A DNA stretch of 32,000 nt from Chloroflexota bacterium (GCA_013204555.1 JABMNO010000024.1:14397-46396); one strand, 5' to 3'. Shown: positions 1,550 to 21,588, numbered from the stretch's first letter. Notes: generated by a model from the letters alone, not told the origin. Program-made: numbers and translations.

Positions 1550-2473
1550 CTAGCCAGTGAACGTCAACACGCGCAACTCGTCAAAAGTACAACCTGAGTT
1601 CAGGAACGAGATCGACAGAGTGAACAGCAAAGGGTGATCTACTTTTTTGTCAATTAGAGCCTGAACGGCAAGGTGCGCGTTCTGGCAGACAGTAACTCCA
1701 GCCACCACCGTAAGCGCGAGATAATTCGGAACCGATTTCGCACTATTCTCCAGGCAGTATGTGGCAATACCAACCTGATAGTTAAGTGATCTGAGGTCGG
1801 TGGCCTTCCTGCTCAAATCACTCGTAAATTGACCGGCCCTTTCCGCCACGCAATCCAGATCGCTGTGAGCAAAGAATGGAGGTAGGCCTCCGACTGGTTT
1901 CTCCGCGGTTGGAGGCGCATCAACCGTTATTACAGGCTCTGCAACGCGAGGATCTGCGACGAATATCCCGCATTCCACAAAGGTGTCAATGAGTTCTTCC
2001 GATTCCTCCATTGACAGGTTCTGAAGCATCTCCAGACTGCCGTTATTGATCAGGCAATCGATCTGCTCGACCGTGAAATCAGGCGCATCACCTTGCTCAA
2101 GGCTCGTACTGCCAGTGCAAACCAAAAGGGAACGCAACGCCAAAAGACTGAGCACTTCCGTTCCTTCGATGGCCTTTGTTATCGCCTCAACATTACCGCC
2201 AAGCTCCGTTTGAAGACAGATCAATTCGTTGATGCTGAACAGGCCGCCTACAGGCTCAATGGTGGGAGCCAATCTCGCGGGTAGCGGCGACGCGGTGGGC
2301 GCTACGAAATCATCCTCTGGCTCGCCATCAACCATCAAAGGTGAGAACAATTCTGAGAGTTCAGGAGTCGGCGTGATGCCGCCGACGGGCTCCTCACTGT
2401 CCCCTCCTCCACATGCGACAAGGGCGAGCACAGCGAATAGCGTCACGATGGAACCGCGGGCGGAAACACTCAT
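1550..2473 (-). CDS. Putative lipoprotein with four Cys-pair repeat modules (unknown function)
   Basis: ATG at 2473 gives MSVSARGSIVTLFAVLALVAC-GGG, a classic lipoprotein signal with lipobox LVAC. The mature part contains four ~40-45-aa units, each bracketed by two Cys (INELICL...LLVC; VEQIDCL...FVEC; HSDLDCV...ATYC; VTVCQ...NSGC). The longer start at 2557 is possible. No family recognised. Confidence 0.6.
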   Translation of the reverse strand: MSVSARGSIVTLFAVLALVACGGGDSEEPVGGITPTPELSELFSPLMVDGEPEDDFVAPTASPLPARLAPTIEPVGGLFSINELICLQTELGGNVEAITKAIEGTEVLSLLALRSLLVCTGSTSLEQGDAPDFTVEQIDCLINNGSLEMLQNLSMEESEELIDTFVECGIFVADPRVAEPVITVDAPPTAEKPVGGLPPFFAHSDLDCVAERAGQFTSDLSRKATDLRSLNYQVGIATYCLENSAKSVPNYLALTVVAGVTVCQNAHLAVQALIDKKVDHPLLFTLSISFLNSGCTFDELRVLTFTG

Positions 2474-2663
2474 CGGGTGCGCCAAAGTCGCATCGCCGTT
2501 CGCCACACCACTCTTGAGATCAACGCCTGCACTCCACTCTTTTTGCCCACGGCTCATGTTCTATACCGCAGAATATCGACATCAGCGGATGCGTGCCAGA
2601 ATCGTTCTGGCACTACATGTACCGATTTCTCACAACTGTCGTAAATCTATTTCGGAGTCAACG

Positions 2664-3878
2664 ATGACGCACTGGAGTGACGGATTCAAGGATGCTAGTG
2701 GCAAAGGGCCGTTGGACGGGATTCGCGTGCTGGACCTTGGCCGGTACCAGGCTGGCCCACGCGCCGGACTCATCTTTGCACGGCTTGGCGCGGATGTGAT
2801 CAAGGTCGAGCCACCTGGCCGAGGTGACGAGAGTCGTTCAGGCAACCCAAAAGTTCGCGGTCAAAGCGCCTACTGGGTGCAGTACAACTCTGGAAAACGC
2901 AGCGTGACCCTCGATCTTCGATCTACTGTCGGCAAAGAAATACTCTCGGATCTCGTGAAACAGTCCGACATCTTGATTCAGAATTTCAGGCCGGGAGTCA
3001 TCGATGAAATGGGCTTCGGCTATGACGACCTCAGGTCAATCAACAAGCGCATCGTGATGATCAACGTCTCTGCCTACGGCCAGTATGGACCCTTGTCTGA
3101 GCAGATTGGGTTCGATCAGGTTGGCCAGGCAATGAGCGGCCTGATGTCGCTGAACGGTGAGCCAGAAGGAAGGCCCATGGTCGTTCCATTCCCAATTGTC
3201 GATCGGATCACAGCACTGCACGCAACCATCGGCGCGCTGGCAGCACTTAGAGAACGCGATATATCCGGTGAAGGACAGGCGATCGATGTCTGCCTCGCAG
3301 ACTCCGCCTACACAACAGTTGAGATTCCCGTGTCGGCATACCTTGACGATGGGCAGGAACCCCACCGAACCGGTAACGAGTATGAGCTGGCCAACATGTA
3401 TGAGACAAACGACGGGTTCGTCTACGTCGCGAGTTACGGTAGCGACAATATTTTCCCGCGTCTTGCGAAGGCAATCGGCCACGAAGATTGGAGTACAGAC
3501 TCGCGGTTCGACAGCGTATCGAGTCGCGCAGAGAACAACGGCATCGTTCAAGCAGCCCTCATCGGGTGGTGCGCAGCAAAAACTGCTGAGGCGGCCTCAT
3601 GCGAACTCAACGGCGCAGACATCCCAAGTTCGCCAGTGAACCAGATATCGCAGGCCGCAACGCACCCACATGTGACCGAAAGAGAGGTCATGGTTGAGGT
3701 GGAAGACGCCCGCGCTGGCTCCATGCACGTCACCGGCCGCGTGATCAAGTTCAGCCGGTCGGGGATGCCAGTCGGACCCGCACCTGAAATCGGGCAACAC
3801 ACGGACGAAGTCCTCTCCGATATCCTGGGCAAATCTTCAGATGAGATCACCGCTCTCAGAGACTCAGGCGCGGTCTAG
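2664..3878 (+). CDS. CaiB/BaiF family (class III) CoA-transferase
   Basis: MTHWSD...PLDGIRVLDLGRYQAGPRAGLIFARLGADVIKVEPP is the canonical N-terminal signature of family III CoA-transferases. GGAG lies 6 nt upstream of ATG 2664. The 2229-2663 extension in the ORF track is low-complexity and overlaps the opposite-strand lipoprotein gene, so I reject it. Confidence 0.9.
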   Translation: MTHWSDGFKDASGKGPLDGIRVLDLGRYQAGPRAGLIFARLGADVIKVEPPGRGDESRSGNPKVRGQSAYWVQYNSGKRSVTLDLRSTVGKEILSDLVKQSDILIQNFRPGVIDEMGFGYDDLRSINKRIVMINVSAYGQYGPLSEQIGFDQVGQAMSGLMSLNGEPEGRPMVVPFPIVDRITALHATIGALAALRERDISGEGQAIDVCLADSAYTTVEIPVSAYLDDGQEPHRTGNEYELANMYETNDGFVYVASYGSDNIFPRLAKAIGHEDWSTDSRFDSVSSRAENNGIVQAALIGWCAAKTAEAASCELNGADIPSSPVNQISQAATHPHVTEREVMVEVEDARAGSMHVTGRVIKFSRSGMPVGPAPEIGQHTDEVLSDILGKSSDEITALRDSGAV

Positions 3879-4395: not shown

Positions 4396-4570
4396 ATAGT
4401 CGAGGCTCCATGTCCTCCGAAACTCCGACGGCACGCCCAATCGTCGGAGTTTCGCCTAATGCGCTCACTGTGGACTCATCGTCTACAATCCTCCCGCACC
4501 AGCAGACGCCTTGCCCACCCATCCGGCAGGGGTAGTCCATGCAACTACCTTCCTGGAAAAGAGGATACTC

Positions 4571-5995
4571 ATGACCACTCGCGGGACTGACGAACGCCCG
4601 AATTTCCTGATCATCATGTCCGACGAACACGGAGCCAAGTTCAGCGGCACGTACGGACACCCCCTGGTTAGCACGCCGAATATGGACCGCCTAGCGGCGA
4701 TGGGTGTGACGTTTGATAACGGCTACTGCAACTCCCCGTTGTGCGTCCCATCCCGAGCGTCATTCATGACCGGCCAGTACGTCAGCAACACAAAGACCTA
4801 TGACAACTCGACCCCGATGCGCGTCGATGCCGTCACGTGGCCGTATCTGTTGCGATCACAAGGCTACGACGCTGTTCTCGACGGGAAGATGCACCTCATT
4901 GGCCCTGACGCGCTGCATGGATTCGACCGTCAACTCGCTCACGATCCACATGCGGAGGAACTCGTACACGAGCATTATCAGTGGAAAGACGGATGTCCCA
5001 CATCAGACGCGCCATGGCCGTCGGTTTTTGAGGCAGGTCCCGGTACCACGCCCATGATCGAAGCTGACGACGAGATGGAGAAGGCCGCGCTCGAATACCT
5101 TCAGCAACCAGGCCGACACGATAATCCCTGGGCCATCTGTGTAGGTTTCATCGCTCCGCACTTCCCCTTCGTGGTCCCGGAGCCTTATTTCTCGAAATAC
5201 TATCCAGACAGCGTGGACATGCCAGATATCCCGGATGGACATCTCGACAATCTGCCCCCGGCGGCGAAACGCCTTGGAGGTATGTTTGGCGTCAACCATA
5301 AGTACACCGACGACGAGGTTAAACGGGCCCGCGCCGCGTACTATGGCCTTGTCGAATGGATGGACGCGAAGATCGGCCGTTTACTGGATTCGCTGGAGGA
5401 AAATGGACTCGCCGAAAACACCGTAATCATCTACACCTCTGATCACGGCGACGCCCTGGGTGAGCACGGTCTCTGGCGCAAAATGAGTATGTTTGAGGCG
5501 TCATCGCACATACCCATTCAGATCGCCTGGCCCGGACACCTTCCCGCAGGCAAACGGGTATCGCAGCCGATGTCTAACGTGGACGTCACTGCCACTATCG
5601 CAGACATCGCCGGATTCGATCCTGCTGAATGGCAGATGGACGGCGATAGTCTCGTGCCGTTGATGAACGGCGATGAGGCATCCTGGAAGAATTTCGCCCT
5701 CGTAGAACATCTCGCGCACGGAACCGAACGCGCACTAGTGATGGTTCGGCGCGGAAGCTGGAAACTAACCTACGGCCACGGCGACCCGCCAGAGTTGGAA
5801 CTCTACGATCTAGATACCGACCCCGGAGAGTTCAACAATCTGGCAAACGACCCTGCCCACGCCGCAAAGCAGCAGGAGATGATGGACCTCCTGATGCAGG
5901 AGTGGGGAGACCCCGCGGAGATCCAGAGTCAGGTCTTGCAAAGCCAGACGGATAGAGGCGTAATTCGTGCCGTGGACGGCGGAAAGATTTTCTAA
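4571..5995 (+). CDS. Cys-type sulfatase, choline-sulfatase (BetC)-like
   Basis: ATG 4571 is preceded by AAGAGGA. The protein starts MTTRGTDERPNFLIIMSDEHG (metal-binding SDxH). It has NSPLCVPSRASFMTGQ (C-x-P-S-R formylglycine motif, Cys type), TSDHGD and a C-terminal LYDLDTDPGEFNNLA string, all as in choline-sulfatase-like enzymes. Confidence 0.9.
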   Translation: MTTRGTDERPNFLIIMSDEHGAKFSGTYGHPLVSTPNMDRLAAMGVTFDNGYCNSPLCVPSRASFMTGQYVSNTKTYDNSTPMRVDAVTWPYLLRSQGYDAVLDGKMHLIGPDALHGFDRQLAHDPHAEELVHEHYQWKDGCPTSDAPWPSVFEAGPGTTPMIEADDEMEKAALEYLQQPGRHDNPWAICVGFIAPHFPFVVPEPYFSKYYPDSVDMPDIPDGHLDNLPPAAKRLGGMFGVNHKYTDDEVKRARAAYYGLVEWMDAKIGRLLDSLEENGLAENTVIIYTSDHGDALGEHGLWRKMSMFEASSHIPIQIAWPGHLPAGKRVSQPMSNVDVTATIADIAGFDPAEWQMDGDSLVPLMNGDEASWKNFALVEHLAHGTERALVMVRRGSWKLTYGHGDPPELELYDLDTDPGEFNNLANDPAHAAKQQEMMDLLMQEWGDPAEIQSQVLQSQTDRGVIRAVDGGKIF

Positions 5996-6150: not shown

Positions 6151-8562
6151 CTACACGAGCCCGTGTTCCACTTTGCCAATGTGGAGTAGCTGCTGTTCCC
6201 GACCCAGCATCACGAAGTAGGCGGACCACCCGCCCATCCGGACCCGAAGATGTCGATACTTCTCCGGTTCTTCCATGGCGGCCTTGAGTTCGTTGACGTC
6301 CGTGACGGTGACGGTCAACATGTTGCCTCGCATGGCAATAAATGCCCGGATAAGTCCGGCCAGACGGTCTGTACCTGTGTCGCCTTTGAGCCCACTTGAT
6401 GAGAATCGCAGGTCCAGTGGAGCGCCTGCCGCCAGGTCTGTGACCCGCATCTTGACGTACGAATTGATCGCTGAAGTTGGGCCGGAAATATCCGTTCCAG
6501 GGGCAGGTGAGAAATTCGGTGCTATCGGTTCGCCTGCATAACGTCCATCGGCAGAGGCACCCACCTCTTTGCCAATCATGGAGTACCAGGAGAATGTGCC
6601 GACCGAGCAGGGGAAGATTACGTCTGGGAACTGGGCGGAATGATGTCTGCTACGGTCCACAAAAAAGTCCATCATTTCGCGAGCGATGTCGTCAGCATAG
6701 GGGTCATTGTTGGCCCACTTCGGCGCCCGCGCCATAAGCCGCTGTCGCAGGATGTCGTGGCCTCCCCAATCAGAGTCAAGCGCCTCTTTGAGTGCAGACA
6801 TGGTCAGAGATCTGTCCTCGTAGACCATCTTTTTGATGGCGGACATGGAGTTGACCGCGTTGGAAACCGCCTCACCCATCACATGCCAGATGATGTAACG
6901 GGCGCCATTACGAATTACATCCTGTCTGTTTTCGATGCAGTCCAGCGTCATCGCCGATAGGAACGGATTCCAGTTGTACTTGCCGTGGCTACTGTGCTCT
7001 AGCGTGTCGTTCTTTATGGCGTTGCCGATGTACTCAATGCCCTGCCTGAGTTGCTCATCGGTTTGCGCTTTCCAGGCGTCCATCAGATCTTCAAAAGTTT
7101 CGAACTTGGACGGTGCCTCGGTCTCTACTCCCATCTTGCCGTGTACCTTCGATTCACCTTTGTTAAGGGCAAGCTCAAGGAACAGCAAGAAGTTCATGCC
7201 ACGGATCAACTCCTGGTCTGACCTGCCCTCGATCATCGTCTCCCAGCAGTTGGAATTCGCGTAGTCGCGGGCATCCTCAAGTTTTACGCCGAGGTCGACG
7301 TAGGCCTGGACGATTACGTCATCATTATTGACGTACGGCATGCCGCTTCCGGCCTTCAGAACCTGGGCCGTGCGCCGAATCAGCTCTGGAGGAGATCCGC
7401 CGTGAAGCCGGATGGTTACGACGGGGCTTGTGTAAGCGAACTTTTCCTGGGCGTTGAGGCAAAGGTACGTTAGTTCGTTGGTGCCGTCGGACCCGTTCGG
7501 CTTGATGCCACTCAGAAGTATGTTCTGACCAAAATGATTGATGGCGTCTGCATGGTCAGTTGCGTAACTGAACCGACGTCTGTGCCCTGCCTGCCAGGTA
7601 TCTGGACCCGTGTCGACAACGATTCCGGCCTTCCGTGATTCTTTGGCGTCACCGCTGTCTACGTCATCGGGAGAAACAAAGAAGATGTCACGATCAATCT
7701 GGGCGCGGTCGTTGAATCGCAGCCACAGGCAATCTACGAGTTCCTGGGCGGCCTCAAGAGTGATCGCGTTGCTGTCGAGATCACGCTTGAGGGCAGGGTA
7801 GAGGTACTGGTCGATGCGACCACAAGATATGTTCGTGCCGGTTGAGAACATGACGAAGTGCATGAACCAGAACGACTGGACCGCCTCTTGGAAAGTTCGG
7901 GGGGCGTGTTCAGGCACGCGTCGACATATCTCAGCTATTGATTTCAACTCTTCCCGGCGGGACGGATCGGATTCTTCGTGCGCTTTCGATTGAGCGAGAT
8001 CGGCGTAGCGATGGGCGTGTTCTATCACCGCTTCACACTCCAGCTTCATCGCCCTGAAGAAACCGATCTTCTCATCACGTTCGGAGCCTGACGGAAGGTT
8101 TTCAACGTCTTTGAGCCCTGCCTGGATACGCAGGAAAACCGCACCTATTCCGGTGTCCATCACATCGTAGTAATACGGAGTCTTATGACCCAGTTGCGAC
8201 GCGATACTTGCACCGCTATCGGCGGCATCCTGAAGTTCATGGTCAAGAGCGAATCCAGGCATACGCGTTCTTACGATTACACCGTCAAGAAGTGAGTTCC
8301 CAACGATCAGATCGTTGGCTTCCAACGCGATGGGCATTTCGCGAAGGGCACGAGTAAACGCCATTGCGTGACGAACAACGATGGGTTCACTATCTGCGCT
8401 GGATTCTGAGAGGATTGTGAGATCGCCACCCCAGGTGATCTGAGATTGGGTCATTCGTTTCTGCAGCACATCCTGCAGCCGTTGCACTCTCGCGCTGAGT
8501 ACGGTCAGCGCATCATCAGACAGCGTGGACGGTATATCTCGTGCACCAGCAATGGTCGCCAT
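6151..8562 (-). CDS. Glycyl radical enzyme, PFL2/glycerol-dehydratase-like family, divergent (substrate unknown)
   Basis: 803 aa. GGAG lies upstream of ATG 8562. Family-typical strings are present: PRTFQEAVQSFWFMHF...SCGRIDQYLYP, NELTYLCLNA, PVVTIRLH, GMPYVNNDDV and EDARDYANSNCWE (Cys codon 7246-7248 with Glu at +2). The C-terminal radical-glycine region is RHLRVRMGGWSAYF (Gly codon 6229-6231). It is immediately downstream of a GRE activase. Confidence 0.9.
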   Translation of the reverse strand: MATIAGARDIPSTLSDDALTVLSARVQRLQDVLQKRMTQSQITWGGDLTILSESSADSEPIVVRHAMAFTRALREMPIALEANDLIVGNSLLDGVIVRTRMPGFALDHELQDAADSGASIASQLGHKTPYYYDVMDTGIGAVFLRIQAGLKDVENLPSGSERDEKIGFFRAMKLECEAVIEHAHRYADLAQSKAHEESDPSRREELKSIAEICRRVPEHAPRTFQEAVQSFWFMHFVMFSTGTNISCGRIDQYLYPALKRDLDSNAITLEAAQELVDCLWLRFNDRAQIDRDIFFVSPDDVDSGDAKESRKAGIVVDTGPDTWQAGHRRRFSYATDHADAINHFGQNILLSGIKPNGSDGTNELTYLCLNAQEKFAYTSPVVTIRLHGGSPPELIRRTAQVLKAGSGMPYVNNDDVIVQAYVDLGVKLEDARDYANSNCWETMIEGRSDQELIRGMNFLLFLELALNKGESKVHGKMGVETEAPSKFETFEDLMDAWKAQTDEQLRQGIEYIGNAIKNDTLEHSSHGKYNWNPFLSAMTLDCIENRQDVIRNGARYIIWHVMGEAVSNAVNSMSAIKKMVYEDRSLTMSALKEALDSDWGGHDILRQRLMARAPKWANNDPYADDIAREMMDFFVDRSRHHSAQFPDVIFPCSVGTFSWYSMIGKEVGASADGRYAGEPIAPNFSPAPGTDISGPTSAINSYVKMRVTDLAAGAPLDLRFSSSGLKGDTGTDRLAGLIRAFIAMRGNMLTVTVTDVNELKAAMEEPEKYRHLRVRMGGWSAYFVMLGREQQLLHIGKVEHGLV

Positions 8563-8635
8563 GAATTAACTCCGTGTTGTCCGGTTGTCATGTTGGCGTC
8601 GTTGCTCTATTACGTCCGTGATCAGCGAGTGAGTC

Positions 8636-9574
8636 TCAACCGCCGATCTGTACTTCAAGACCGGCAGTTTTGCAGATGCCGGCCAGTACGTCCATGTATT
8701 CCTCCTCCTGGGTCGTCCGTCCACCAAGCGTATATGGGGTACCAATCCAATCGTATTTCGCCCCCGCTGCACTGTTGTACGGGAGTAACGCGATTCGCTT
8801 TACCCCACTGTCTGCGACCAGTCGCGAAGTACTGCGAATTTGATCAGCTGAGTCGTTTATGCCCGGAATGCAGGGCACGCGGACCTGGATATCGTGGCCT
8901 TCGGAAGCCAGCATTCGCAGGTTAGTGATAATCAATTCGTTTGGCACTCCCGCATATTTCATGTGGGCGGCAGAGTCCACCAGCTTCATGTCAAACAGAA
9001 GCAGATCGGCAACGCTAGCGAGCCGCTGCATCACTTCGGTGCGAGCGTAACCGGTGGTTTCCATCGCCGTGTGAATACCGCGCATCTGGCAGGCCAGCAG
9101 GAAATTGAAAGAAAAATCGGGCTGTCTGGCGGGTTCGCCACCGCTGAGAGTTACGCCTCCGCCGGAACTGATGAAAAACGGCGCATCCGCTTCTACCTGT
9201 TGCACCATCTCGCCCACAGATGTTGCGATACCGCCAATCCGGAGAGCTCCGGGATAACAGACCTCAACGCATTTGCCACAGACGGTGCATGCATCCCGAT
9301 CAAGTACGGCCACATGTCGTTCCCCGTTCATCCCCATAGACAGGGCATGCTCCGGGCACGTTTCGGGACAAAGACCGCATGCATCACATCGCTCGTCCTG
9401 GTACAGCAGTTCTGGATGGGCCCCACGGGACTCCGGGGAGTGGCACCAGACGCACGCAAGAGGGCAACCCTTCAGGAACACAGTCGTGCGAATACCGGGC
9501 CCATCATGCGACGCGAAACGGTCGACATCGAGGACAAGACCCTCAATACTCATATCCGGGCTTAGCCCCAACAT
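8636..9574 (-). CDS. Glycyl-radical enzyme activating protein (radical SAM)
   Basis: Contains FASHDGPGIRTTVFLKGCPLACVWCHSPES (CxxxCxxC radical-SAM cluster). Two ferredoxin-like motifs follow (CDACGLCPETCP, CTVCGKCVEVCY), then TLSGGEP, as in activases of PFL2-type GREs. Start is uncertain: ATG 9574 has AGGAAA 8 nt upstream; ATG 9553 and 9595 are alternatives. Confidence 0.9.
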   Translation of the reverse strand: MLGLSPDMSIEGLVLDVDRFASHDGPGIRTTVFLKGCPLACVWCHSPESRGAHPELLYQDERCDACGLCPETCPEHALSMGMNGERHVAVLDRDACTVCGKCVEVCYPGALRIGGIATSVGEMVQQVEADAPFFISSGGGVTLSGGEPARQPDFSFNFLLACQMRGIHTAMETTGYARTEVMQRLASVADLLLFDMKLVDSAAHMKYAGVPNELIITNLRMLASEGHDIQVRVPCIPGINDSADQIRSTSRLVADSGVKRIALLPYNSAAGAKYDWIGTPYTLGGRTTQEEEYMDVLAGICKTAGLEVQIGG

Positions 9575-9932
9575 TGCTGTATTTTCCTGTGACATCTGTC
9601 TCTGGCTCTGAGCGGATCGGGGTAATGGATCGCACTTATGACCGCAAGGGTATATCAGAGCGGAAGTCCCTGACGGATCACGAGCGGCCATCACTCCCAA
9701 CTCCGCGCCAGCCTGATCGTCGTCAGAATCGCGGGGATTTCATGTAAGCCCACACACAACGCCGCCCGAGGTCCGATTCCTATCGGGCCATCAGGTTTTC
9801 TGCCACACAGGAGTCGCAACGAGGTGTCTGTCCGACCACGATTGTGGACCGCAAAAGCACCGTGTGACGACGCCAAACATCGGCCACGTCGCGAGCATTA
9901 GCGTCTGCCCTGGATCAGAAATCGCGGGCGCC

Positions 9933-12900
9933 TTAGTTCCAATTTTGTGGCGACACAGCGCCAAAGTTAGACGCTGCGGCTGAAATGTCCAGGATGTCCA
10001 CGTTCCCACTACCGTTGAGATCAACAATGCGCCCTTGCGCGTCGAGTCGGTCCGTGAGACCGGTGACGCCAAACGACGCGGCGATTGCGCTGATGTCACG
10101 GATACTGACCACTCCATCGCTATCAACGAGGCCCGAACGCAACTCGAACGTGGACACCGTTGCGGTGGATTTCGCCACCGTAATTGAAGATGCTCGCACT
10201 CCTTGTACAAAACCAGGTGCCTGTACTGTCACCGAGTAAGCGCCGTCCGATAGTCCGGTGATCGCAAACGTCCCATCGGCATTTACCGCAACAGTGGTGC
10301 TCGTAGAGCCGTTATCGGCGGTCGCCGTCGGCCCTATTGACGTGATTGCCCCCTGATCCTTCACGCCCTGAAGCGAGATTTGTCCCGTGATGGTGGACGC
10401 GAGAATTCTGACGATGCTGCTGCGGTTGGCCGCCCCATCGTTGGCGAAGGCATGGACAGTAGATGACGCCCGAAGGTCCACGGTGAATGGGGCTGCGTAC
10501 GGGATGAAGCTGGCACCGTCCGTGGAGTAGTACAAACTCGCCACGCCTGACACGCTGTCAGTGGCTGCCAGAGTTACCTGAGTCAGTGCGCCCGTAGAAG
10601 TCGACGTCAGGGTAATCACCGGGCCTTCGGTGTCTGCCGCTGCCGCTCCAGTGAGGATCGCTGTTGGCGTGCTCGTGGCGTCGAATGAACCATTACCATC
10701 GCTATCGTAGGACAGATCCCTGGCCCCGGCGAGAGTGAATGAAAGTCGGGTGGCAGCGTTGTCAGGCAGGTTCACGTCCTGGTAGCGAATTGCCTCATCT
10801 GGCGTGCTACCGTCTCCAGTTAGAACCTCAATGAAGATTGGGCCAGTAGCGTTGAAGTCCAGATCGAATGTTTCGCTTGATTCCGCTGGCAGCAACACCA
10901 TGTATGCGTTGTCGCCAATAGCAAGAACGTCCACACCCGGGATTTTCTGGGCCAACACCTCGTTTGCCAGTGCAGTGGATCCGCCACTTCCAGAGAGAAC
11001 CGTAACGGTTGACGGTCCAATAATTTTTACGTAGCGATAGGCCGTTATATGCGAACTATCTATTGCAGGCTGTTGGGTTTCCGATAGCGCTGCTGCCGAA
11101 CTGCCAAATGGCTCAGTGCTGCCAAATCCGCTTCCTCCGGCCAAGAAATCAAGGAGTGCAGTGACCATCTCCGGGTTCCTCATCATGTGGTTATGGTCTA
11201 CAAGATCGTCGTTTGCATTGAAGAGCGGTCGCAATGTGGCGCCAGGAAAGTTGTAATCCGCGTTTCCTATCCTCTCAGCGCTAAGCCGGGGTACCGTTCC
11301 ATCGCCTATGGTAAATCCGGGATCAGCCACAAGCTGCTCACTACATGCGTAGTTGGAAATCAGGCACACCGTTTCCATTTTCATGGTGAAACCCTCAATG
11401 GTATTCGCCGCAGATTGCACTCCCAGTAGATGAAAAAACTCAATCCCTGAAGTGTCCGTCCGCCAGTCGTCCTGCTCTAGCGAGTGGAAGGTCTTTGCTG
11501 TTGTTCCAGGGAAGAATCCATTTCGGCCGTACCGAATGTCGGCAAGATCGTAGAGCTCCTGGCCGGAGAACGCATCGATTGTCACGCCGTTCCCGTCCAA
11601 ATCGACGCCGAACTCCTCGATTACCGGAGGGCCTCCAAGGTCGAAATAATCCTGGGACGGCAATAATTGATGCACAGCGTCAAACGACCCGAGAACGTCT
11701 TTCAGGACAGCCTTGACCGGCGGCACGTGCTTGATCTCCGGAACAAACTCCCCTGTCTCCAGTACGAAGGCTAACTTTGGAGCGCCGAGCCACGGCGCGG
11801 CAATTGATACCCAGCGGTCGATGTGATGGTCGGACATATGATCCAGGACATACCGTCGGCCAATGAGACCGCCCATGCTGTGGGTGACCAGATTGAAATC
11901 ACTATCAGGATAAATCTGCCGCATGCAGTCAACGTAGTCGTCCAACTTTGCGGCATTCACAGCATTATCCAGCCGCCAGTCGTACGGAAACAAGAACAGA
12001 TTTGGCTTCTTACCGTCGGCATCCTTCTGATCAACATCGCAACCAGATGAGGTCAGCCGGGAAGAGTCGAAGGTTGAGTAGTCTCCAACCGGCCCGGTAT
12101 TGAGGTCGTACTCTCGGAATCCTCTGGTTGCGAGACCTTCAAGGAATCCGCCGTAGACGTCGTCTTCATGCGATGTACCTTCCAATACCGCGCGCAGAAC
12201 GTCTGGAGCCACAATATCGTCGCCCTGACCGCCATCGAACAGGGTCATATCGTTAAGGTCAAACAGGAAGTTTGCCCCAGCTGGCATCCACAAAACATCA
12301 CTTCCGCCCAGGCCATTTCTGTCCATAAGCACACTCCCCGCAACACCAGGCACGAAGACCACCGGGAGCGGAGGTTCTGGCGGGACAACGGAGAACACCC
12401 AAGCGGCGCCCCATTCTGTTGGAGACTGGGTTAGGTCGATGCGACGGGTGGCGGTCACAACAGCGGTACTGCTGCTGATCGAAGCCGCCGATCCGAACCG
12501 GTCGCCCTCATTGCCGCCTGAAGGCGTGAGTCGCGCTTGGGGGCTCCATGAATCTCCGCTACGACCGAACACATATGCTGATCCCGTGCGAAGCGTACTG
12601 CCCACGTGGTCGGACTGAAAACCCACTACCGCCATGTCCCCGCTAACAGAAACAGAAGTGGCGAAGCCATCAAGCGCTTCGCCATCCGTGGCTGTCAAGT
12701 GAGCCTGCTGACTCCAGTCGGTACCGCTTCGGGCAAATACATAGGCCGATCCCTGGTTAACGTTGCTGCCTATATCGTCGCGAGGATCACCCACCACAAT
12801 CGTGTCTCCGTCCAAGGAGACAGAGTTGCCAAATTCGTCGAATTCTTCGCCATCCGCGGCTATCAAGTGAGCCTGCTGGCTCCAGACACCCTCACTACGC

Positions 12901-13646
12901 AGAAATACATAGGCTGATCCTTGGTAGGCGTTCGTCCCAACCGCGTCGTTTGGCACGCCGACGACTATCGTTTCACCGCTGATAGCGATGGCCGAGCCGA
13001 ATTCATCATTCGCTGCGCCATCCGAAGCCACGATCTTGGCCTGTTGGGTCCAGGAGGCCCCGTTCCCCGCGAAAACGTATACCGACCCCTGAGTGCTATT
13101 ACCACCCACAGTCGTCCACTTGGCGCCTACCGCGAGCGTATCCCCACTTATCGATACGCTCCCGCCGAAACCTGCGCCATCGGCGGCAATGAGTTTGGCC
13201 TGTTGGCTCCAGCTAGTCCCGCTGCGCACGAATACGTAGGCTGCCTCTTTGCCAGTAGCGCCCACCACAACCCTGTCTCCGCTTATGGAAACAGATCCAC
13301 CGAAATTGTCGTTCTCGCCATCATCAGCAGCGAGAACTGCCTGCTGGCTCCAGGTAGCCCCGCTGCGCACGAATACATGTACCAATCCTGTACGGATGCC
13401 ATCCACTTTCGTTGCGGGAGCGCCAACAACCAGGGTATCGCCATCAATCGCGGTTGCCGTTCCAAAACCACCTCCAAAAAGAGTGTCGTTCGGTACCGGA
13501 TCAAGTTTCACTAATTCAGTGAGATCGGGGATACTCGCCTGCACCCGAGGAGTTACGACCAGATGAGAAGCCCTCCCAACACCCCAGATAATGACTATCA
13601 GTAGCAACACGGTCAAAATTCTGGTGGAGGTGTTCCGGTGTGTCAT
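9933..13646 (-). CDS. Large secreted/anchored multidomain protein: 7x FG-GAP propeller + LCAT/PGAP1-like lipase + beta-sandwich modules + C-terminal dockerin-like repeat
   Basis: ATG 13646 gives MTHRNTSTRILTVLLLIVIIWGVG (signal/anchor); ATG 13766 is an alternative. Seven blades follow of the form FGxSVSISGDTxVVGA...GSAYVF.RSG..WSQQA.L.A.DG. The alpha/beta lipase region has VVFVPGVAGS, FPYDWRLD and the VTHSMGG nucleophile elbow. Next come SLYYSTDGASFIPYAAPFTV (chitobiase/Fn3-associated-type module) and DGTFAITGLSDGAYSVTVQAPGFV (CarboxypepD-reg-like). The C-terminus has a dockerin-like pair, DSDGVVSIRDISAIAASFG / DLNGSGNVDILDISAAASNFG. Confidence 0.85.
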   Translation of the reverse strand: MTHRNTSTRILTVLLLIVIIWGVGRASHLVVTPRVQASIPDLTELVKLDPVPNDTLFGGGFGTATAIDGDTLVVGAPATKVDGIRTGLVHVFVRSGATWSQQAVLAADDGENDNFGGSVSISGDRVVVGATGKEAAYVFVRSGTSWSQQAKLIAADGAGFGGSVSISGDTLAVGAKWTTVGGNSTQGSVYVFAGNGASWTQQAKIVASDGAANDEFGSAIAISGETIVVGVPNDAVGTNAYQGSAYVFLRSEGVWSQQAHLIAADGEEFDEFGNSVSLDGDTIVVGDPRDDIGSNVNQGSAYVFARSGTDWSQQAHLTATDGEALDGFATSVSVSGDMAVVGFQSDHVGSTLRTGSAYVFGRSGDSWSPQARLTPSGGNEGDRFGSAASISSSTAVVTATRRIDLTQSPTEWGAAWVFSVVPPEPPLPVVFVPGVAGSVLMDRNGLGGSDVLWMPAGANFLFDLNDMTLFDGGQGDDIVAPDVLRAVLEGTSHEDDVYGGFLEGLATRGFREYDLNTGPVGDYSTFDSSRLTSSGCDVDQKDADGKKPNLFLFPYDWRLDNAVNAAKLDDYVDCMRQIYPDSDFNLVTHSMGGLIGRRYVLDHMSDHHIDRWVSIAAPWLGAPKLAFVLETGEFVPEIKHVPPVKAVLKDVLGSFDAVHQLLPSQDYFDLGGPPVIEEFGVDLDGNGVTIDAFSGQELYDLADIRYGRNGFFPGTTAKTFHSLEQDDWRTDTSGIEFFHLLGVQSAANTIEGFTMKMETVCLISNYACSEQLVADPGFTIGDGTVPRLSAERIGNADYNFPGATLRPLFNANDDLVDHNHMMRNPEMVTALLDFLAGGSGFGSTEPFGSSAAALSETQQPAIDSSHITAYRYVKIIGPSTVTVLSGSGGSTALANEVLAQKIPGVDVLAIGDNAYMVLLPAESSETFDLDFNATGPIFIEVLTGDGSTPDEAIRYQDVNLPDNAATRLSFTLAGARDLSYDSDGNGSFDATSTPTAILTGAAAADTEGPVITLTSTSTGALTQVTLAATDSVSGVASLYYSTDGASFIPYAAPFTVDLRASSTVHAFANDGAANRSSIVRILASTITGQISLQGVKDQGAITSIGPTATADNGSTSTTVAVNADGTFAITGLSDGAYSVTVQAPGFVQGVRASSITVAKSTATVSTFELRSGLVDSDGVVSIRDISAIAASFGVTGLTDRLDAQGRIVDLNGSGNVDILDISAAASNFGAVSPQNWN
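12387..13466 (-). repeat. Seven tandem coding repeats (~135-168 bp each) encoding FG-GAP-like propeller blades
   Basis: The repeat units of 54/45/56/56/56/56/37 aa can be aligned by eye. They also generate the cluster of spurious plus-strand ORFs at 12606-13566. Confidence 0.8.
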
Positions 13647-14002
13647 GAATTCCGTATCCGTAATAAGTGACGAATTTGGCGGGGCGTCGATATTGGAGCA
13701 AGCCGTAGAGTTTGGTGGGTCCGGGAAGACACAGTCAACCAGAACATTTCCAGAGTTGACCAGCATCTCCGTAACTCAGAAAGCGGGCAGTATATACGCT
13801 CTGTCCTGATGTCCGATTCCGTTTGCTCCGTGAAGGTATCTGGGCCATCGGATCACGAGCGTCTAAGGGTTCGGCGGCGAAAGATGAGATTCTCACGTCG
13901 TTCGCTGAGCCTCACTCCTCAGAACGACGGAGGAGCGTGAGGATCTTTCCCCCAGCATCAGACGTCCGCACGATTTGCTAAAAAAGCAGCAGCGCGCGCC
14001 CG

Positions 14003-14686
14003 CTACCGCCCCGCTTCGACCTGTTCTTTCTGCCAACTGTAGTCAACATCCCCGGCGTAGAACTTGTCCGGGTTCTCGATGGCCCAGAGCTGCTTTCGCA
14101 TGTTCCAGTTCTGGGGATCCAGGACAATGCCATCTCTCCAGATCTGACTAGCTCCGTCTATGTCACCTGATCGGAAGAGGCTAAGACCGCGCTCGAAATG
14201 ATCCGACACGGGCGCATCAGCGGCCTTTGAACCGTCTGGCGATACGTTGCCACTTTCTGCGAACGCTGTGACCAGCTGAGCCATATCGTCCTTCTTGACG
14301 TTGAATCCACCGTAGTACTGGAACCTGAGAATGCCGTCCTCATCTATGAACACCCCGTTAGGTATGGCGTTGTAGCCGAACACCCGTGCGAGCGCATTCT
14401 CCTCATCCACGATGGTCGTGAACTCCGCCCCCGCGGCCTCGTGATACGGGCGAGCCTTGTCTGGACCCTGAAGGTCCACCGCAATTGAAAGCAACTCTGT
14501 GCCGTTGACCTTCAGGTCGGAGTACATCTGCTGCCACACGGGCAACTGTTCTCGGCACGCTCACCACGATGCCCAGAAAAACAGGATCAATCGACGCCCC
14601 CGATAGTCCGACAGGCTGACCTCATCACCATCCAGCGATGTCAGCGTGAAGTCTGGAACTACCTCACCGGCGTTGATATTTGGCAT
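14003..14686 (-). CDS. TlpA/ResA-like thiol-disulfide oxidoreductase with in-frame UGA at the catalytic position: candidate selenoprotein (alternative: nonsense-disrupted pseudogene)
   Basis: ATG 14686-14684 is preceded by GGAGG (14700-14696, 9-nt spacer). 41 sense codons follow: [41 protein letters not shown]. Then comes TGA (14563-14561), then [13 protein letters not shown]... in the same frame down to TAG 14005-14003. The TGA occupies the position of the first Cys of the FWASWCxxC redoxin motif. The C-terminal tail reads [18 protein letters not shown]. The ORF track shows only the 180-aa piece starting at an internal TTG. Confidence 0.6.
14528..14548 (-). promoter_or_regulatory. SECIS-like hairpin downstream of the in-frame UGA
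   Basis: mRNA sense is CAGUUGCC-CGUGU-GGCAGCAG: a 6-bp contiguous stem (one G.U pair) plus a closing C-G after an A.A mismatch, with a 5-nt apical loop containing GU. The stem begins 12 nt after the UGA and the loop about 20 nt after it. This is compatible with what I recall of bacterial SECIS geometry. Not validated by folding. Confidence 0.35.
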
Positions 14687-16853: not shown

Positions 16854-17864
16854 TCAGGCCGATTTCACCCTCTTAACGAGCTCGGCAACCTGGTCGTCCG
16901 AGCCAACAGTCGCCGGCAGTGACACCCGACTCGCGTACTGAAATCGGTTGGAAATCGTCTCTGCCATCGTCTCAAACGTTCCGTGGGCGGTGAACTCGCG
17001 GACCACGTCGGGTGATATCTCGTCTGGCATCTGCTCCCACTGCCCGTTCACGGACATCTCGTGCAGCTTCACTCCCAGGTCTTCCAGGCCATGCGCGGCG
17101 AACACGCCGTGATAAGTGCGCGTTGAACCGTAGAACGCCACCCGCGAGCGCAGCGAGTGAAGCTCCTGCTCCACCGCGTCCTCGTCCATGCCCAGTGCCA
17201 TCAGTCCTCCCGCCGATATCTCGATTTCAGATGGATCGCGCCCCTCTGAAATCGCGGCAGCGCGTAGCGTTGGAAGGGTGACATCGTGCACGTATTTCGA
17301 CGTAGTGAATGCGTGCGGCAGCAGGCCATCAGCTACGCGGCCAGCCACTTTAGTCATCTCGGGTCCGACCGCCGCAAGATATACCTTCGGCGTGGGTTCA
17401 TCGTTCGGTCCCATATTAAATGCTGGCGGACAAAGCGTGAAGTTATAGAACTCGCCCTCATATGGCACAAGTTCGCCCGACTGGAACGTTGCCCAGACTG
17501 CACGCATGGTCCGTATGTAATCTTCCATCCGCCGCGCAGGTGACCGCCACATTCCAGTGCTGAACCGCCGCTCGTTATGTCCCTTGACCTGCGAGCCGAG
17601 GCCGATAGAGATCCGTCCGCCGGTCATCCGCTGAAGCTCCCACGCCATCTGCGCCAGCACGAACGGGCTTCGTGGAAAGGCAATGATGACGTGCGTGCTG
17701 ACTTCAATGCTGGTGCTGACGTGCGCTGCAAGCGTCCACCGCATCGTCGCCTCATTCATCACCTCGGAGGTGGCGGCTACATCAAAGCCCAATCGTTCAA
17801 GGCGCTTTACCTGCTCCGGAACCTTCTCAAGAGGACCATCACCAAAATGCCCGACAACTTTCAT
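16854..17864 (-). CDS. LLM-class oxidoreductase, F420-dependent-like subgroup
   Basis: GGAG lies 6 nt upstream of ATG 17864. MKVVGHFG...VKRLERLGFDVAATSEVMNE...RISIGLGSQVKGHNERRFS resembles the F420-dependent LLM subgroup. The cofactor call is inference. Confidence 0.8.
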   Translation of the reverse strand: MKVVGHFGDGPLEKVPEQVKRLERLGFDVAATSEVMNEATMRWTLAAHVSTSIEVSTHVIIAFPRSPFVLAQMAWELQRMTGGRISIGLGSQVKGHNERRFSTGMWRSPARRMEDYIRTMRAVWATFQSGELVPYEGEFYNFTLCPPAFNMGPNDEPTPKVYLAAVGPEMTKVAGRVADGLLPHAFTTSKYVHDVTLPTLRAAAISEGRDPSEIEISAGGLMALGMDEDAVEQELHSLRSRVAFYGSTRTYHGVFAAHGLEDLGVKLHEMSVNGQWEQMPDEISPDVVREFTAHGTFETMAETISNRFQYASRVSLPATVGSDDQVAELVKRVKSA

Positions 17865-17981: not shown

Positions 17982-19031
17982 TTGAAACTTTCCATCCTCG
18001 ATCAATCGCCAATTAGCTCAGGTAAAACGGCGCATGAAGCCGTGCAGGCGACACTCGATCTTGCCGAAGCGGCTGATCGACTTGGCTACACCCGCTACTG
18101 GCTTGCCGAGCACCATAGCTCCGGCACCCTTGCCGACGCCAGCCCGGAAATCCTCCTTGCAGCGGTTGGCGCACACACGAAAAACATCAGGATTGGATCC
18201 GGTGGTGTGATGCTTTCGCACTACAGCCCACTCAAAGTGGCTGAAGTGTTCCGAATGCTGGAGGCGCTCTACCCTGGCCGTATCGACATGGGCCTTGGAC
18301 GGGCGCCCGGATCAGATCAGGTTGCTACGTACGCCCTGCAGCCAGGCCCCAACGCCTACCCGCTTGAGCAGTATCCGCAGCAGGTGTACGACCTGATGCG
18401 CTATCTCAGCGAGACGTTCCCGGACGAGCATCCGTTTAGCAACCTGCGTGCAATGCCCGCCGCACCGGACTGGGCAGTGCCCTGGCTGTTGAGTTCTTCA
18501 ATGGGTAGCTCGCGAATCGCGGCCGAGTTGGGGCTCCCGCTGTCCTTTGCACACTTCATCTCTCAGGATGGGGGACCGGGCTGCGTCAAGTGGTATCGGG
18601 ATAACTTCAAGCCGTCCCGATGGTTCGATGAGCCACGCGTAAACATTGGAATCTCAGCGATCACGGCCGATACCGCAGCGCGAGCCCATGACCTCGCAAC
18701 CTGCCGACACGTAATGCGCTTGATGCGCAACAAAGGGCAGGAGATGAAGGGCATCCCGTCCGTCGAAGCTATCAAGGCGATGAGTTTCAGCGGCGCTGAT
18801 GAAGGATTCATTGAGCAGCAACGCGCGAAGTCGATTGAAGGCGACCCGGAGACGGTCAAAGGACTGATCGAAAACCTCGCTGAGCGGTACGAAACAGACG
18901 ATGTAATCGTCCTGACAATCACCCACGACTACGCAGAACGCCAGCGCTCATACGAGTTGCTGGCCGAGGTGTTCGGTCTGAACGGCGAAGGCCGCGTCGA
19001 CAACTCCATACTGAAGGTAGAAGCAGAATGA
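17982..19031 (+). CDS. LLM-class flavin oxidoreductase, 'luciferase family oxidoreductase group 1' (YhbW-like)
   Basis: (TTG)KLSILDQSPISSGKTAHEAVQATLDLAEAADRLGYTRYWLAEHHSS...GGVMLSHYSPLKVAE is the canonical N-terminus of this subgroup. That supports the TTG start at 17982. Confidence 0.85.
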   Translation: MKLSILDQSPISSGKTAHEAVQATLDLAEAADRLGYTRYWLAEHHSSGTLADASPEILLAAVGAHTKNIRIGSGGVMLSHYSPLKVAEVFRMLEALYPGRIDMGLGRAPGSDQVATYALQPGPNAYPLEQYPQQVYDLMRYLSETFPDEHPFSNLRAMPAAPDWAVPWLLSSSMGSSRIAAELGLPLSFAHFISQDGGPGCVKWYRDNFKPSRWFDEPRVNIGISAITADTAARAHDLATCRHVMRLMRNKGQEMKGIPSVEAIKAMSFSGADEGFIEQQRAKSIEGDPETVKGLIENLAERYETDDVIVLTITHDYAERQRSYELLAEVFGLNGEGRVDNSILKVEAE

Positions 19032-19059: not shown

Positions 19060-19746
19060 TCAGGAACCGTAGTACCGATCCAGACGTTTGAATTCTTCTC
19101 GGACCGACTTGAGTGCCCGCCCCTCAGACTGAAGTAGCAGTACTCCTCTCATCTGCTCAACATCCGTTATTGATCCAGTCGTCAAATACTGAGCCTTGTT
19201 GAATCGAATTTGTTTGTATGAGTCAGAAAGCGCGATGAAATGGTCCAATTGGAGACGATGCAACAATGCGGTTTCTGTTGAGATTTCCAATTGCTGCAAT
19301 TGCTCAATCGACGTGTCCAACTTAGACAAGGCACTATCAAGGACTGATATGGCGCCTTGAAGCGCCGACTGCAATGCCTCTGGAATGTAGATATCGGAAG
19401 GAGTGGAAAGATTTGCTAAGATTTGCTCGACGCTCAGATCATCAAGAAAGACGACTTTAGGGGCAACGGGCCCTACCATCTCGCCAAGAGTACGATCAGG
19501 ATTGTTAGGATCTGCTTGACCGGTCACCAATTGAAGATACTGAAGCGCCTGAATGACCTTCCCATCAGTATTCAAAGTCCGTTCTACAATCGGGTCCGCT
19601 GCGATGACGTAAGCATTGACTTCGGTACGAGCGACTTGAAATGACGTCGCTTGAGCGGTTGCCGAGACCGATACCGCATCCAACTCAGAATTGCAGCCAA
19701 ATGCAATAGATATTGCTATCGCGCTAAGGATCAATTGTCGGTACAA
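19060..19746 (-). CDS. Hypothetical lipoprotein (coiled-coil-rich)
   Basis: TTG start (no in-frame ATG upstream). (M)YRQLILSAIAISIAFGC-NSE has a lipobox (AFGC). The gene is visibly more AT-rich than its neighbours. No family recognised. Confidence 0.55.
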   Translation of the reverse strand: MYRQLILSAIAISIAFGCNSELDAVSVSATAQATSFQVARTEVNAYVIAADPIVERTLNTDGKVIQALQYLQLVTGQADPNNPDRTLGEMVGPVAPKVVFLDDLSVEQILANLSTPSDIYIPEALQSALQGAISVLDSALSKLDTSIEQLQQLEISTETALLHRLQLDHFIALSDSYKQIRFNKAQYLTTGSITDVEQMRGVLLLQSEGRALKSVREEFKRLDRYYGS

Positions 19747-21500: not shown

Positions 21501-21588
21501 CCCAGCGCCGCGTTGCGCGTGGGAGCACCTGACACTGGCGTTCCCACACATGACTACCAATCGTTTTTAGTAGATGATAGGTAGTGGC

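Follow-up and report, generated by a model that had tools for sequence, protein, structure and literature searches.

A glycyl radical enzyme and its activase in a marine Chloroflexi genome: a conserved pair outside the characterised eliminase and isomerase families

Is a glycyl radical enzyme (GRE) with unusual active-site strings, encoded in the genome of a Chloroflexi bacterium, a working catalyst, and if so, which reaction would it perform in such a host? The question is raised by a 32,000-nucleotide stretch of Chloroflexota bacterium DNA (GCA_013204555.1 JABMNO010000024.1:14397-46396; hereafter the window, with positions counted from its first letter), in which the minus strand between positions 6151 and 9574 carries a two-gene module that was described, in an original prediction made from the sequence alone, as a GRE and activase pair with non-canonical radical motifs in an aerobic-type metabolic neighbourhood. 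GREs are the main enzymes with which anaerobes break unactivated C-O, C-N, C-S, and C-C bonds, and to our knowledge each newly assigned GRE clade has so far led to a new pathway, including the conversion of choline to trimethylamine, the use of hydroxyproline, the formation of H2S from isethionate and 2,3-dihydroxypropanesulfonate (DHPS), and anhydroglycolysis. The analysis described here indicates that the module is, as judged from its sequence, a functional GRE and activase pair in a marine Chloroflexi (SAR202-type) genome, and that the GRE is probably a radical 1,2-eliminase/dehydratase, or a related ring-opening isomerase, acting on a hydroxylated, carbohydrate-derived substrate with an aldehyde or ketone as product.

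Both genes are intact, and the open reading frames (ORFs) agree with the description of a minus-strand activase followed, 73 nt further on, by an 803-aa GRE (Table 1). The GRE matches the Pfam domains PFL-like (PF02901, 5e-135) and Gly_radical (PF01228, 3e-18), and its AlphaFold2 model (predicted template modelling score (pTM) 0.83) has the GRE fold, a 10-stranded barrel in which GREs bring the Cys loop opposite the Gly loop, with propanediol dehydratase (PD) and glycerol dehydratase (GD) as best Foldseek matches (TM ~0.73). The activase passes the TIGR02494 model (307 bits versus a cut-off of 174) and contains a GGE S-adenosylmethionine-binding motif at residue 145. The CxxxCxxC motif with two ferredoxin-type clusters that had been reported for it was located as CPLACVWC at 9443-9466 and as two CxxCxxCxxxC motifs at 9356-9388 and 9257-9289. 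The maximal ORF of this gene runs over 8636..9700 (-) with an alternative TTG start at 9700, and the 312-aa form is the choice of the gene caller on four independent assemblies. A 100% identical 803-aa GRE is found on four contigs from JGI and Logan assemblies, and the NCBI record for the identical protein reads 'MAG: hypothetical protein HQ478_05400 [Chloroflexi bacterium]'. Comparison with orthologs of 81-82% identity (pN 0.12, pS 0.72, dN/dS ~0.05 with dS saturated; ~0.04-0.13 as a range) places the GRE gene under strong purifying selection. Scanning of the 73-nt spacer for promoters and terminators gave no site above shuffled background.

The catalytic residues were mapped to those of GD with a 53-sequence alignment, after the numbering of the Clostridium butyricum enzyme had been verified on its gene (GVGH164, GC433VE435, AG763Y). 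Gly778 aligns with GD G763 and with the RVAGY glycine of PD, HypD, and CutC, and is invariant in 119/119 aligned homologs. Cys439 and Glu441 correspond in the alignment to GD C433 and E435, and HMMER alignments to the PD, HypD, and CutC structures concur for both the Cys and the Gly loop. The positions Y434-I444 of the Cys loop are conserved in 115-120 of 120 homologs, the triplet C439-W-E441 is invariant in all 120 of 120, and His126 is invariant in the Chloroflexi-type as well as the Firmicutes-type subclade. The C-x-E motif is kept in all characterised eliminases and isomerases, where the Glu is hydrogen-bonded to the substrate hydroxyl, and GD His164, the counterpart of His126, is proposed to protonate the hydroxyl as it leaves (PMC13450708). 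Misalignment of Gly778 or of the SNCWE cysteine with the radical residues had been named as the sign of an inactive homolog; both align with the radical residues of GD, the full catalytic set is in place, and the eliminase/dehydratase-like pair that had been proposed is found intact, with a GRE of the C-x-E kind and its activase.

The motif strings quoted in the original prediction were all located (RMGGWSAYF at 775-783, SNCWE at 437-441, QNILLSG at 346-352, and the FFVSPDD...HRRRF stretch), and the Cys loop indeed reads N-C-W-E, not G-C-V-E. Calling the radical motifs non-canonical nevertheless overstates the case. Compared with the GRE fingerprint RVxG[FWY]x6-8[FL]x4Qx2[IV]x2R given in a June 2026 review (PMC13450708), the sequence reads R775-M-G-G778-W-x6-L786-x4-Q791-x2-H794-x2-K797, matching at the Gly, [FWY], [FL], and Q positions and departing at V->M776, [IV]->H794, and R->K797. 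Trp779 is canonical because the fingerprint allows [FWY] after the radical Gly, and the C-x-E motif is kept. The departures at 776 and 794 are clade-wide, and at 797 an Arg is present in 104/118 relatives. Across 120 homologs (55-100% identity), YANSNCWETMI, RVRMGGW, H126-K127, R454, and G-T-F-S-W at 655-659 are invariant or nearly so, and on this comparison the odd strings are read as conserved hallmarks of the clade, not as decay.

When aligned with GD and CutC, the extra acidic/basic stretch that had been noted is a genuine insertion of ~40-50 residues, located between NDRAQ and DAINH. It splits into two parts: a variable, unconserved loop at ~296-320, in which the predicted local distance difference test score (pLDDT) is <50 for residues 304-311, and flanks that are conserved and specific to the clade (WLRFNDRxQIxRxxF and AGHRxR...DAxDAINHFGQN). 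As measured in alignments, the length at this site is 20-66 aa in the wider group that we refer to as the CWE/GGW superclade, versus 0-13 aa in the canonical GCVE/RVAGY families.

The window GRE falls below the cut-off of every NCBIfam GRE equivalog model. The scores against the respective cut-offs were 392/1000 for HpsG, the top-scoring equivalog, 382/1100 for HypD (NF043068), 334.5/1050 for CutC (TIGR04394), 317/1000 for HpfG, and 314.7/1109 for YbiW/PflD (PRK09983). The protein also remains below the PFL2/glycerol-dehydratase subfamily model TIGR01774 (433.9 versus 678.2 bits), as do six other clade members (371-438 bits). Among solved structures none is closer than ~30% identity, with PD, HypD, CutC, and GD nearly tied in both sequence and fold. 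In a neighbour-joining (NJ) tree of residues 346-795, a distance method applied with few references (GD, PD (partial), HypD (partial), CutC, YbiW, PflD, an Enterococcus GRE, and PflB), the clade is monophyletic in 100/100 bootstraps and lies outside the group formed by GD, PD, PflD, YbiW, HypD, and CutC. The window GRE is 28-32% identical to each reference in this tree, whereas the references are 33-60% identical among themselves, and its branch lies deep, about as distant from the eliminases and isomerases as from PflB. The original prediction is borne out in so far as the GRE, by the failed equivalogs, the 28-32% identity, and the separate monophyletic clade, groups with no characterised GRE, and the tight clustering that would have spoken against a new family member was not observed.

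When 1.84 billion cluster representatives were searched exhaustively with HMMER, sister groups of graded similarity (33-45% identity) emerged with the motifs Y-x-N-D-G-C-W-E, G-T-F-E-x, and R-V-R-[MV]-G-G-[WLF...] together with an insertion of 25-66 residues. Sequence comparison thus places the window GRE in the N-C-W-E branch of a larger, uncharted CWE/GGW superclade, which is marked by a C-W-E Cys loop, a G-G-[W/L/F] Gly loop, and this insertion and extends from SAR202 plankton of oxygen-minimum zones to sediment archaea and gut Clostridia, and the clade itself comprises >680 clusters at 90% identity in one search. Literature on GREs, SAR202, Chloroflexi, and Hungatella yielded no named family or characterised member of the clade; the June 2026 review contains no enzyme matching it (PMC13450708), and GREs grouping with no known enzyme had been found in an earlier sediment metagenome study (PMC6258724). 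As a separate observation, sister clades P0133, P0139-P0143, P0162, and P0174 differ in the residue that follows the radical Gly, which is Leu, Ser, or Asp (RVR[ML]GG[L/S/D]); this falls outside the published [FWY] fingerprint, so that motif-based GRE searches would miss them.

Table 1. Coordinates of the GRE-activase module, its predicted catalytic elements, and the adjacent sulfatase gene within the window.
Feature	Position	Strand	Basis or remark
GRE, 803 aa, member of the YANSNCWE clade	6151..8562	-	ORF, Pfam domains, AlphaFold2 model, Foldseek
GRE-activating radical SAM enzyme, 312 aa from ATG at 9574	8636..9574	-	TIGR02494, Radical_SAM, Fer4_12, Fer4
Spacer from activase stop to GRE start, 73 nt	8563..8635	-	Sequence; GGAG 7 nt before the GRE ATG
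Gly loop R773-L786 (RVRMGGWSAYFVML)	6205..6246	-	Predicted radical Gly778 at 6229-6231
Cys loop Y434-I444 (YANSNCWETMI)	7231..7263	-	Predicted thiyl Cys439 at 7246-7248; general-base Glu441 at 7240-7242
His126, in S/A/G-H-K-T-P-Y-Y	8185..8187	-	Counterpart of GD His164 by alignment
Insertion relative to GD/CutC, residues 292-338	7549..7689	-	Alignments
Cys-type sulfatase, convergent with the GRE gene (context only)	4511..5995	+	Pfam Sulfatase, 3.5e-51

The aerobic-type neighbourhood had been presented as a paradox for an oxygen-labile enzyme. A GRE in a facultative host is ordinary, as exemplified by E. coli, and the window genes of the luciferase-like monooxygenase (LLM) family give no firm sign of oxygen-dependent chemistry: two of the three pass curated models, one (16854-17864 (-)) that of the F420-dependent LLM oxidoreductases TIGR03617 (321 versus 278 bits) and the other (17982-19031 (+)) the MsnO8 family model (377 versus 167 bits), and these two provide no evidence of such chemistry, while the third is unassigned. 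Scanning of the GTDB species genomes with the pattern YANSNCWE yielded 60 loci, and the carriers include SAR202/Dehalococcoidia metagenome-assembled genomes (MAGs), including some named after the oxygen-minimum zones (OMZs) of the Eastern Tropical North Pacific and the Arabian Sea, as well as Chloroflexia, Caldilineales, Spirochaetaceae, Bathyarchaeia, and one Gemmatimonadaceae MAG. At 42-47% identity they also include strict anaerobes of human, mouse, and termite guts (Hungatella, Lachnospiraceae, Oscillospiraceae, Ruminococcaceae, Christensenellales, and Treponema), and relatives in the clade stem chiefly from low-oxygen or anoxic habitats (OMZ, sediment, groundwater, gut). SAR202 genomes are reported to encode pyruvate:ferredoxin oxidoreductase and tetrathionate and nitrate reductases, to have facultative anaerobic potential, and to contain large expansions of sulfatase and enolase-superfamily genes (PMC5864207, PMC6946804). 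With one LLM gene of the F420-dependent type, relatives in anaerobes and OMZs, and SAR202 genes for pyruvate:ferredoxin oxidoreductase and for anaerobic respiration, the paradox is overstated, and a GRE in a SAR202-type host is unremarkable in principle. The suggestion that the contig might derive from a strict anaerobe in which such modules are routine holds by half, in that the family is common in anaerobes. An extended view of the contig displayed thioredoxin/AhpC-type genes, an ABC transporter, and LepA, and no respiratory genes were seen in it. The AhpC/TSA-like ORF at 14003-14545 (-) matches only the C-terminal part of its Pfam profile and is represented on the JGI contig by a 41-aa peroxiredoxin fragment and a 174-aa ORF, which may reflect a frameshift or a truncation in a peroxiredoxin gene.

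Which reaction would such an enzyme perform? We infer the reaction type and the class of substrate from the integrity of the genes, the conservation of the residues, the distinctness of the clade, and the neighbourhoods of its relatives. In the proposed mechanism, the activase, with its three [4Fe-4S] sites, would cleave S-adenosylmethionine under anoxic or micro-oxic conditions, and the resulting 5'-deoxyadenosyl radical would take a hydrogen from Gly778. The radical stored there would be passed on to Cys439 as a thiyl radical, which would abstract a hydrogen from the carbinol carbon of the substrate. Deprotonation of the hydroxyl by Glu441 would generate a ketyl radical, upon which the vicinal substituent, most probably a hydroxyl or O-linked group that is protonated by His126, would leave, and the product radical would regain its hydrogen from Cys439 to release the aldehyde or ketone.

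Neighbourhoods of related loci provide context for this assignment. The activase adjoins the GRE in 52/66 of these loci, and the activase-GRE pair is their sole constant. In the Firmicutes/Spirochaete-type members, which are 42-47% identical to the window GRE and carry the same active-site signature, the operon starts with two CUT1 sugar ABC permeases, a large solute-binding protein, and DhaK/DhaL; next come a YesM/YesN-type histidine kinase with an AraC regulator, then the activase and the GRE, and last an aldehyde-processing enzyme. This enzyme lies beside the GRE in most of these loci, usually immediately downstream, and belongs to one of three types: aldo-keto reductase (8 loci), CoA-acylating methylmalonate/malonate-semialdehyde dehydrogenase passing TIGR01722 (5 loci), or the 3-hydroxyisobutyrate-dehydrogenase family. 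Genes found in other loci encode an AXE1 esterase, a PfkB hexose kinase, a UxuA-like protein, a bona fide galactonate dehydratase, GH5, Gfo/Idh/MocA, mannitol dehydrogenase, and class II aldolase proteins. A galactonate-dehydratase-like MR_MLE gene neighbours the GRE in 10 loci; this adjacency is suggestive only, because SAR202 groups I and II carry 4-75 paralogs of this enolase-superfamily gene (PMC6946804).

In Dehalococcoidia and Bathyarchaeia the GRE is accompanied by URO-D-family and B12-binding proteins and sometimes by a second, different GRE. Two Dehalococcoidia loci (L002 1-12442 and L005 1946-14410) contain two different GRE-activase pairs interleaved with URO-D-family and corrinoid proteins, an arrangement that hints that radical cleavage and methyl transfer may be joined in one pathway. 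In the MAG of a Treponema from a termite gut, paralogs of ~430 aa without a Pfam match (L042, 521-1825 and 5267-6544) stand on both sides of the activase-GRE pair and are followed by a LarA-like protein with the lactate racemase N-terminal domain.

Regarding the substrate, the residue set that GD uses is represented by a retained His164 (H126), a variable N244 at the position of Ser282, and Ile453 in place of Asp447. The clade-invariant Arg454 adjoins this last position, and Trp440 and Trp659 are clade-invariant as well; these three residues are consistent with a sugar-like or anionic substrate. Semialdehyde-handling neighbours together with Arg454 suggest a carboxylate-bearing 2,3-dihydroxy substrate, and conversion of a 2,3-dihydroxy acid, for example of glycerate to malonate semialdehyde, the carboxylate counterpart of what GD and HpfG catalyse, is offered as the best specific guess, a speculative one that draws on relatives of 42-47% identity and is clearly more probably wrong than right. 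The active-site signature shared across the subclades argues for one reaction type, and the variability of position 244 suggests several substrates. It is conceivable, if somewhat doubtful, that the superclade performs a GRE reaction not yet described, converting glycerate-type acids into semialdehydes or eliminating sulfate or methanol from O-substituted sugars; if true, such a reaction would let abundant marine Chloroflexi exploit dissolved organic matter of carbohydrate origin anaerobically.

Several observations weigh against an eliminase for carbohydrate-derived substrates. GD Asp447 is replaced by Ile453, and position 244, the counterpart of GD Ser282, is highly variable within the clade. 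The strand near GD Tyr640/IslA Arg678 is placed 5 residues apart by mafft and phmmer, making the mapping there ambiguous, and for the sulfonate anchor only the absence of Arg in the segment was used. In the AlphaFold2 model the pLDDT is <50 at the Gly loop (773-781), 681-695, and 304-311. No sugar or aldehyde gene adjoins the GRE in the window, and the flanks vary even among orthologs of >80% identity (a sulfatase and a giant FG-GAP protein here, a convergent MR_MLE gene in three others), so that transfer of context from relatives of 42-47% identity is weak. Finally, the URO-D/corrinoid methyltransferase genes beside some relatives point to other chemistry.

One alternative, which we regard as unlikely, is a YbiW/PflD-like ring-opening isomerase whose unphosphorylated substrate, an anhydro-sugar or a cyclic polyol, would enter the cell through an ABC transporter. 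The C-x-E motif is present as in GRE isomerases, the ABC transporters, DhaKL, and aldo-keto reductase of the relatives would suit a deoxy-ketose that is split into triose and hydroxyacetone, and the conserved Trp would be typical of sugar-binding sites. Nevertheless, the PRK09983 score is only 315 bits versus a cut-off of 1109, the identity to YbiW and PflD is 29-31% and the protein lies outside both in the tree, and no aldolase is consistently adjacent.

A divergent dehydratase for small diols (1,2-propanediol, glycerol, or ethylene glycol from the breakdown of deoxy-sugars), doing the work of GD and PD in another lineage, is likewise judged improbable. In its favour, PD (5i2a/5i2g, 9rco) and GD are the best matches in the PDB by sequence and fold, and His126, Cys439, and Glu441 are retained. 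Some related loci include class II aldolase and rhamnonate/galactonate-type dehydratase genes, and genes for aldehyde reductases or for CoA-acylating dehydrogenases adjoin that of the GRE, in most cases on its downstream side. Identity to GD and PD is only 29-32%, however, while these two are 60% identical to each other; GD Asp447 has become Ile and the Ser282 position is variable; microcompartment genes and a PduP-type or Fe-alcohol dehydrogenase partner are lacking; the dehydrogenase next to the GRE is of the methylmalonate-semialdehyde type; and the sugar-type ABC importers would be superfluous for small diols.

The original prediction had also speculated about a C-S or C-N lyase for a desulfated or organosulfur osmolyte. 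This reading, which could take in quaternary-amine osmolytes and a preceding desulfation by the sulfatase next door, is not supported, and we consider it very unlikely. HpsG is the best NCBIfam equivalog (392 bits), the neighbouring sulfatase is choline-sulfatase-like, GRE, MFS, and sulfatase genes are co-stranded in two related loci (L017 and L019), and corrinoid/URO-D methyltransferase genes stand beside some relatives. All equivalog scores are nevertheless far under their cut-offs, and the segments 108-126 and 645-665, where IslA and HpsG anchor the sulfonate, are without Arg. At the position of the CutC Asp a variable residue is found (Q123), and the Thr-x-x-x-Tyr segment reads L-I-R-G-M; in CutC these residues bind choline. 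The choline/CutC reading suggested by the choline-sulfatase-like neighbour was rejected on these active-site residues. Cys-type sulfatases are present in the window as had been stated, both carrying C-V-P-S-R. Their best NCBIfam match is choline-sulfatase (cut-off 433 bits), which neither the gene at 4511-5995 (384 bits) nor that at 19876-21372 (+) (328 bits) reaches, and they are 34% identical to each other. A sulfatase beside the GRE is seen in only 4 of 66 loci and recurs only in L017-L019, and since those proteins are 28% identical to that of the window they are not its orthologs; a sulfatase as conserved GRE partner was rejected for this lack of orthologous linkage, and SAR202 genomes show a massive expansion of their sulfatase genes (PMC6946804).

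A reaction class new to GREs, in which for example an O-substituted sugar would lose sulfate or methanol by radical elimination, with the window enzyme as founder for the CWE/GGW superclade, is rated about as improbable as the lyase. The deep branch outside the characterised eliminases and isomerases, roughly equidistant from these and from PflB, the distinct invariant signature (N-C-W-E, GTFSW, and R454 plus the insertion), and the heterogeneous contexts with sulfatases and corrinoid methyltransferases would fit it, whereas the Cys/Glu/His set is the ordinary eliminase set and the most coherent operons indicate plain aldehyde-forming chemistry. That the GRE is an inactive or decaying homolog in an aerobe, as the oxygen-exposed neighbours of the earlier concern and the three deviations from the fingerprint (V->M, [IV]->H, and R->K) might suggest, can for practical purposes be dismissed, given intact ORFs with an adjacent activase, catalytic residues that are all invariant, strong purifying selection, an identical protein on several independent assemblies, and deviations of which the first two are common to the whole clade.

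The statement that no microcompartment, aldehyde dehydrogenase, or transporter genes accompany the GRE stands for the first two, as neither a shell gene nor an aldehyde dehydrogenase gene was found within the window; for the third, there is a truncated ABC-2 permease ORF (59-547), the sole transporter gene, ~5.6 kb from the GRE. The gene that immediately precedes the activase on its strand, at 9933-13766 (-), encodes a 1277-aa protein in which seven FG-GAP repeats are combined with an LCAT/alpha-beta-hydrolase lipase domain and a CarboxypepD_reg domain. The protein is probably an esterase that is secreted or located at the cell surface, and no similar one was found beside the GRE in related loci of other organisms. 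Four paralogous D-isomer-specific 2-hydroxyacid dehydrogenases of the glycerate/hydroxypyruvate/phosphoglycerate dehydrogenase family (23144-24100 (-), 26993-28090 (+), 28206-29219 (+), and 29283-30299 (+)) lie within 7 kb of each other and 15-24 kb from the GRE, and this cluster could be relevant to a hydroxy-acid substrate or be a mere SAR202-style paralog expansion. A family III CoA-transferase has a maximal ORF at 2229-3878 (+) of 549 aa that overlaps a 335-aa ORF at 1550-2557 (-); the form chosen by gene callers is 404 aa, and the Pfam match begins at residue 162. No Pfam or NCBIfam match was obtained for the 335-aa protein (1550-2557), a 444-aa ORF (21574-22908), and a 228-aa ORF (19060-19746).

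SAR202 bacteria are usually modelled as oxidative degraders of recalcitrant dissolved organic matter, and for the ocean the module would show that strictly oxygen-sensitive radical catabolism occurs in SAR202 too. The clade is large, under purifying selection, and without a named family, and it spans SAR202/Dehalococcoidia of OMZs, Bathyarchaeia, Spirochaetes, and gut Clostridia. Many unassigned GRE clades exist, from which the present one is set apart by its size, its ecological breadth, and the tractable operons of its gut and spirochaete members. The isolates Oscillospiraceae 42-9 and Spirochaetia MS495-87 provide culturable or expressible entry points, with an aldehyde or semialdehyde as the hypothetical product.

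Comparison with known systems places the GRE as follows. CutC shares its fold and the C-x-E motif, and the window sulfatase resembles choline sulfatase; however, the TIGR04394 score is 334 versus 1050 bits, and the Asp and Thr/Tyr with which CutC binds choline are not retained at the aligned positions. YbiW and PflD of anhydroglycolysis share the C-x-E Cys loop, have carbohydrate substrates, and work outside microcompartments, but they are 29-31% identical and form a separate clade, and their substrates are sugar phosphates derived from the phosphotransferase system, whereas the relatives of the window GRE lie beside ABC importers. GD (C. butyricum DhaB1, 1r8w/1r9d) and PD (Roseburia inulinivorans, 5i2a/5i2g; 9rco) have the same barrel fold (TM ~0.73), are the best sequence matches in the PDB (1e-97 and 2e-93), and keep the radical Gly, the thiyl Cys, the C-x-E Glu, and the His164 equivalent in common with the window GRE, which also has a three-cluster activase next door. 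In contrast to these two enzymes, with their mutual identity of 60%, the window GRE is 29-32% identical to them over the catalytic half, reads N-C-W-E instead of G-C-V-E, has Ile453 for Asp447 with Arg454 beside it and an insertion of 40-50 residues, is without an Fe-alcohol dehydrogenase or microcompartment partner, and stays below TIGR01774 (434 versus 678). From the DHPS enzymes HpsG (a sulfolyase) and HpfG (a dehydratase) and from the isethionate sulfite-lyase IslA it differs by scores far below the 1000-bit cut-off, by having no counterpart of the Arg/Gln/Arg sulfonate anchor, and by the absence of sulfite-handling genes nearby. With HpsG, HpfG, and IslA (IseG) it shares the C-x-E chemistry, HpsG being the top NCBIfam equivalog (392 bits), and the HpfG reaction, in which DHPS is converted to 3-sulfopropionaldehyde, is the closest analogue of the proposed conversion of glycerate to malonate semialdehyde.

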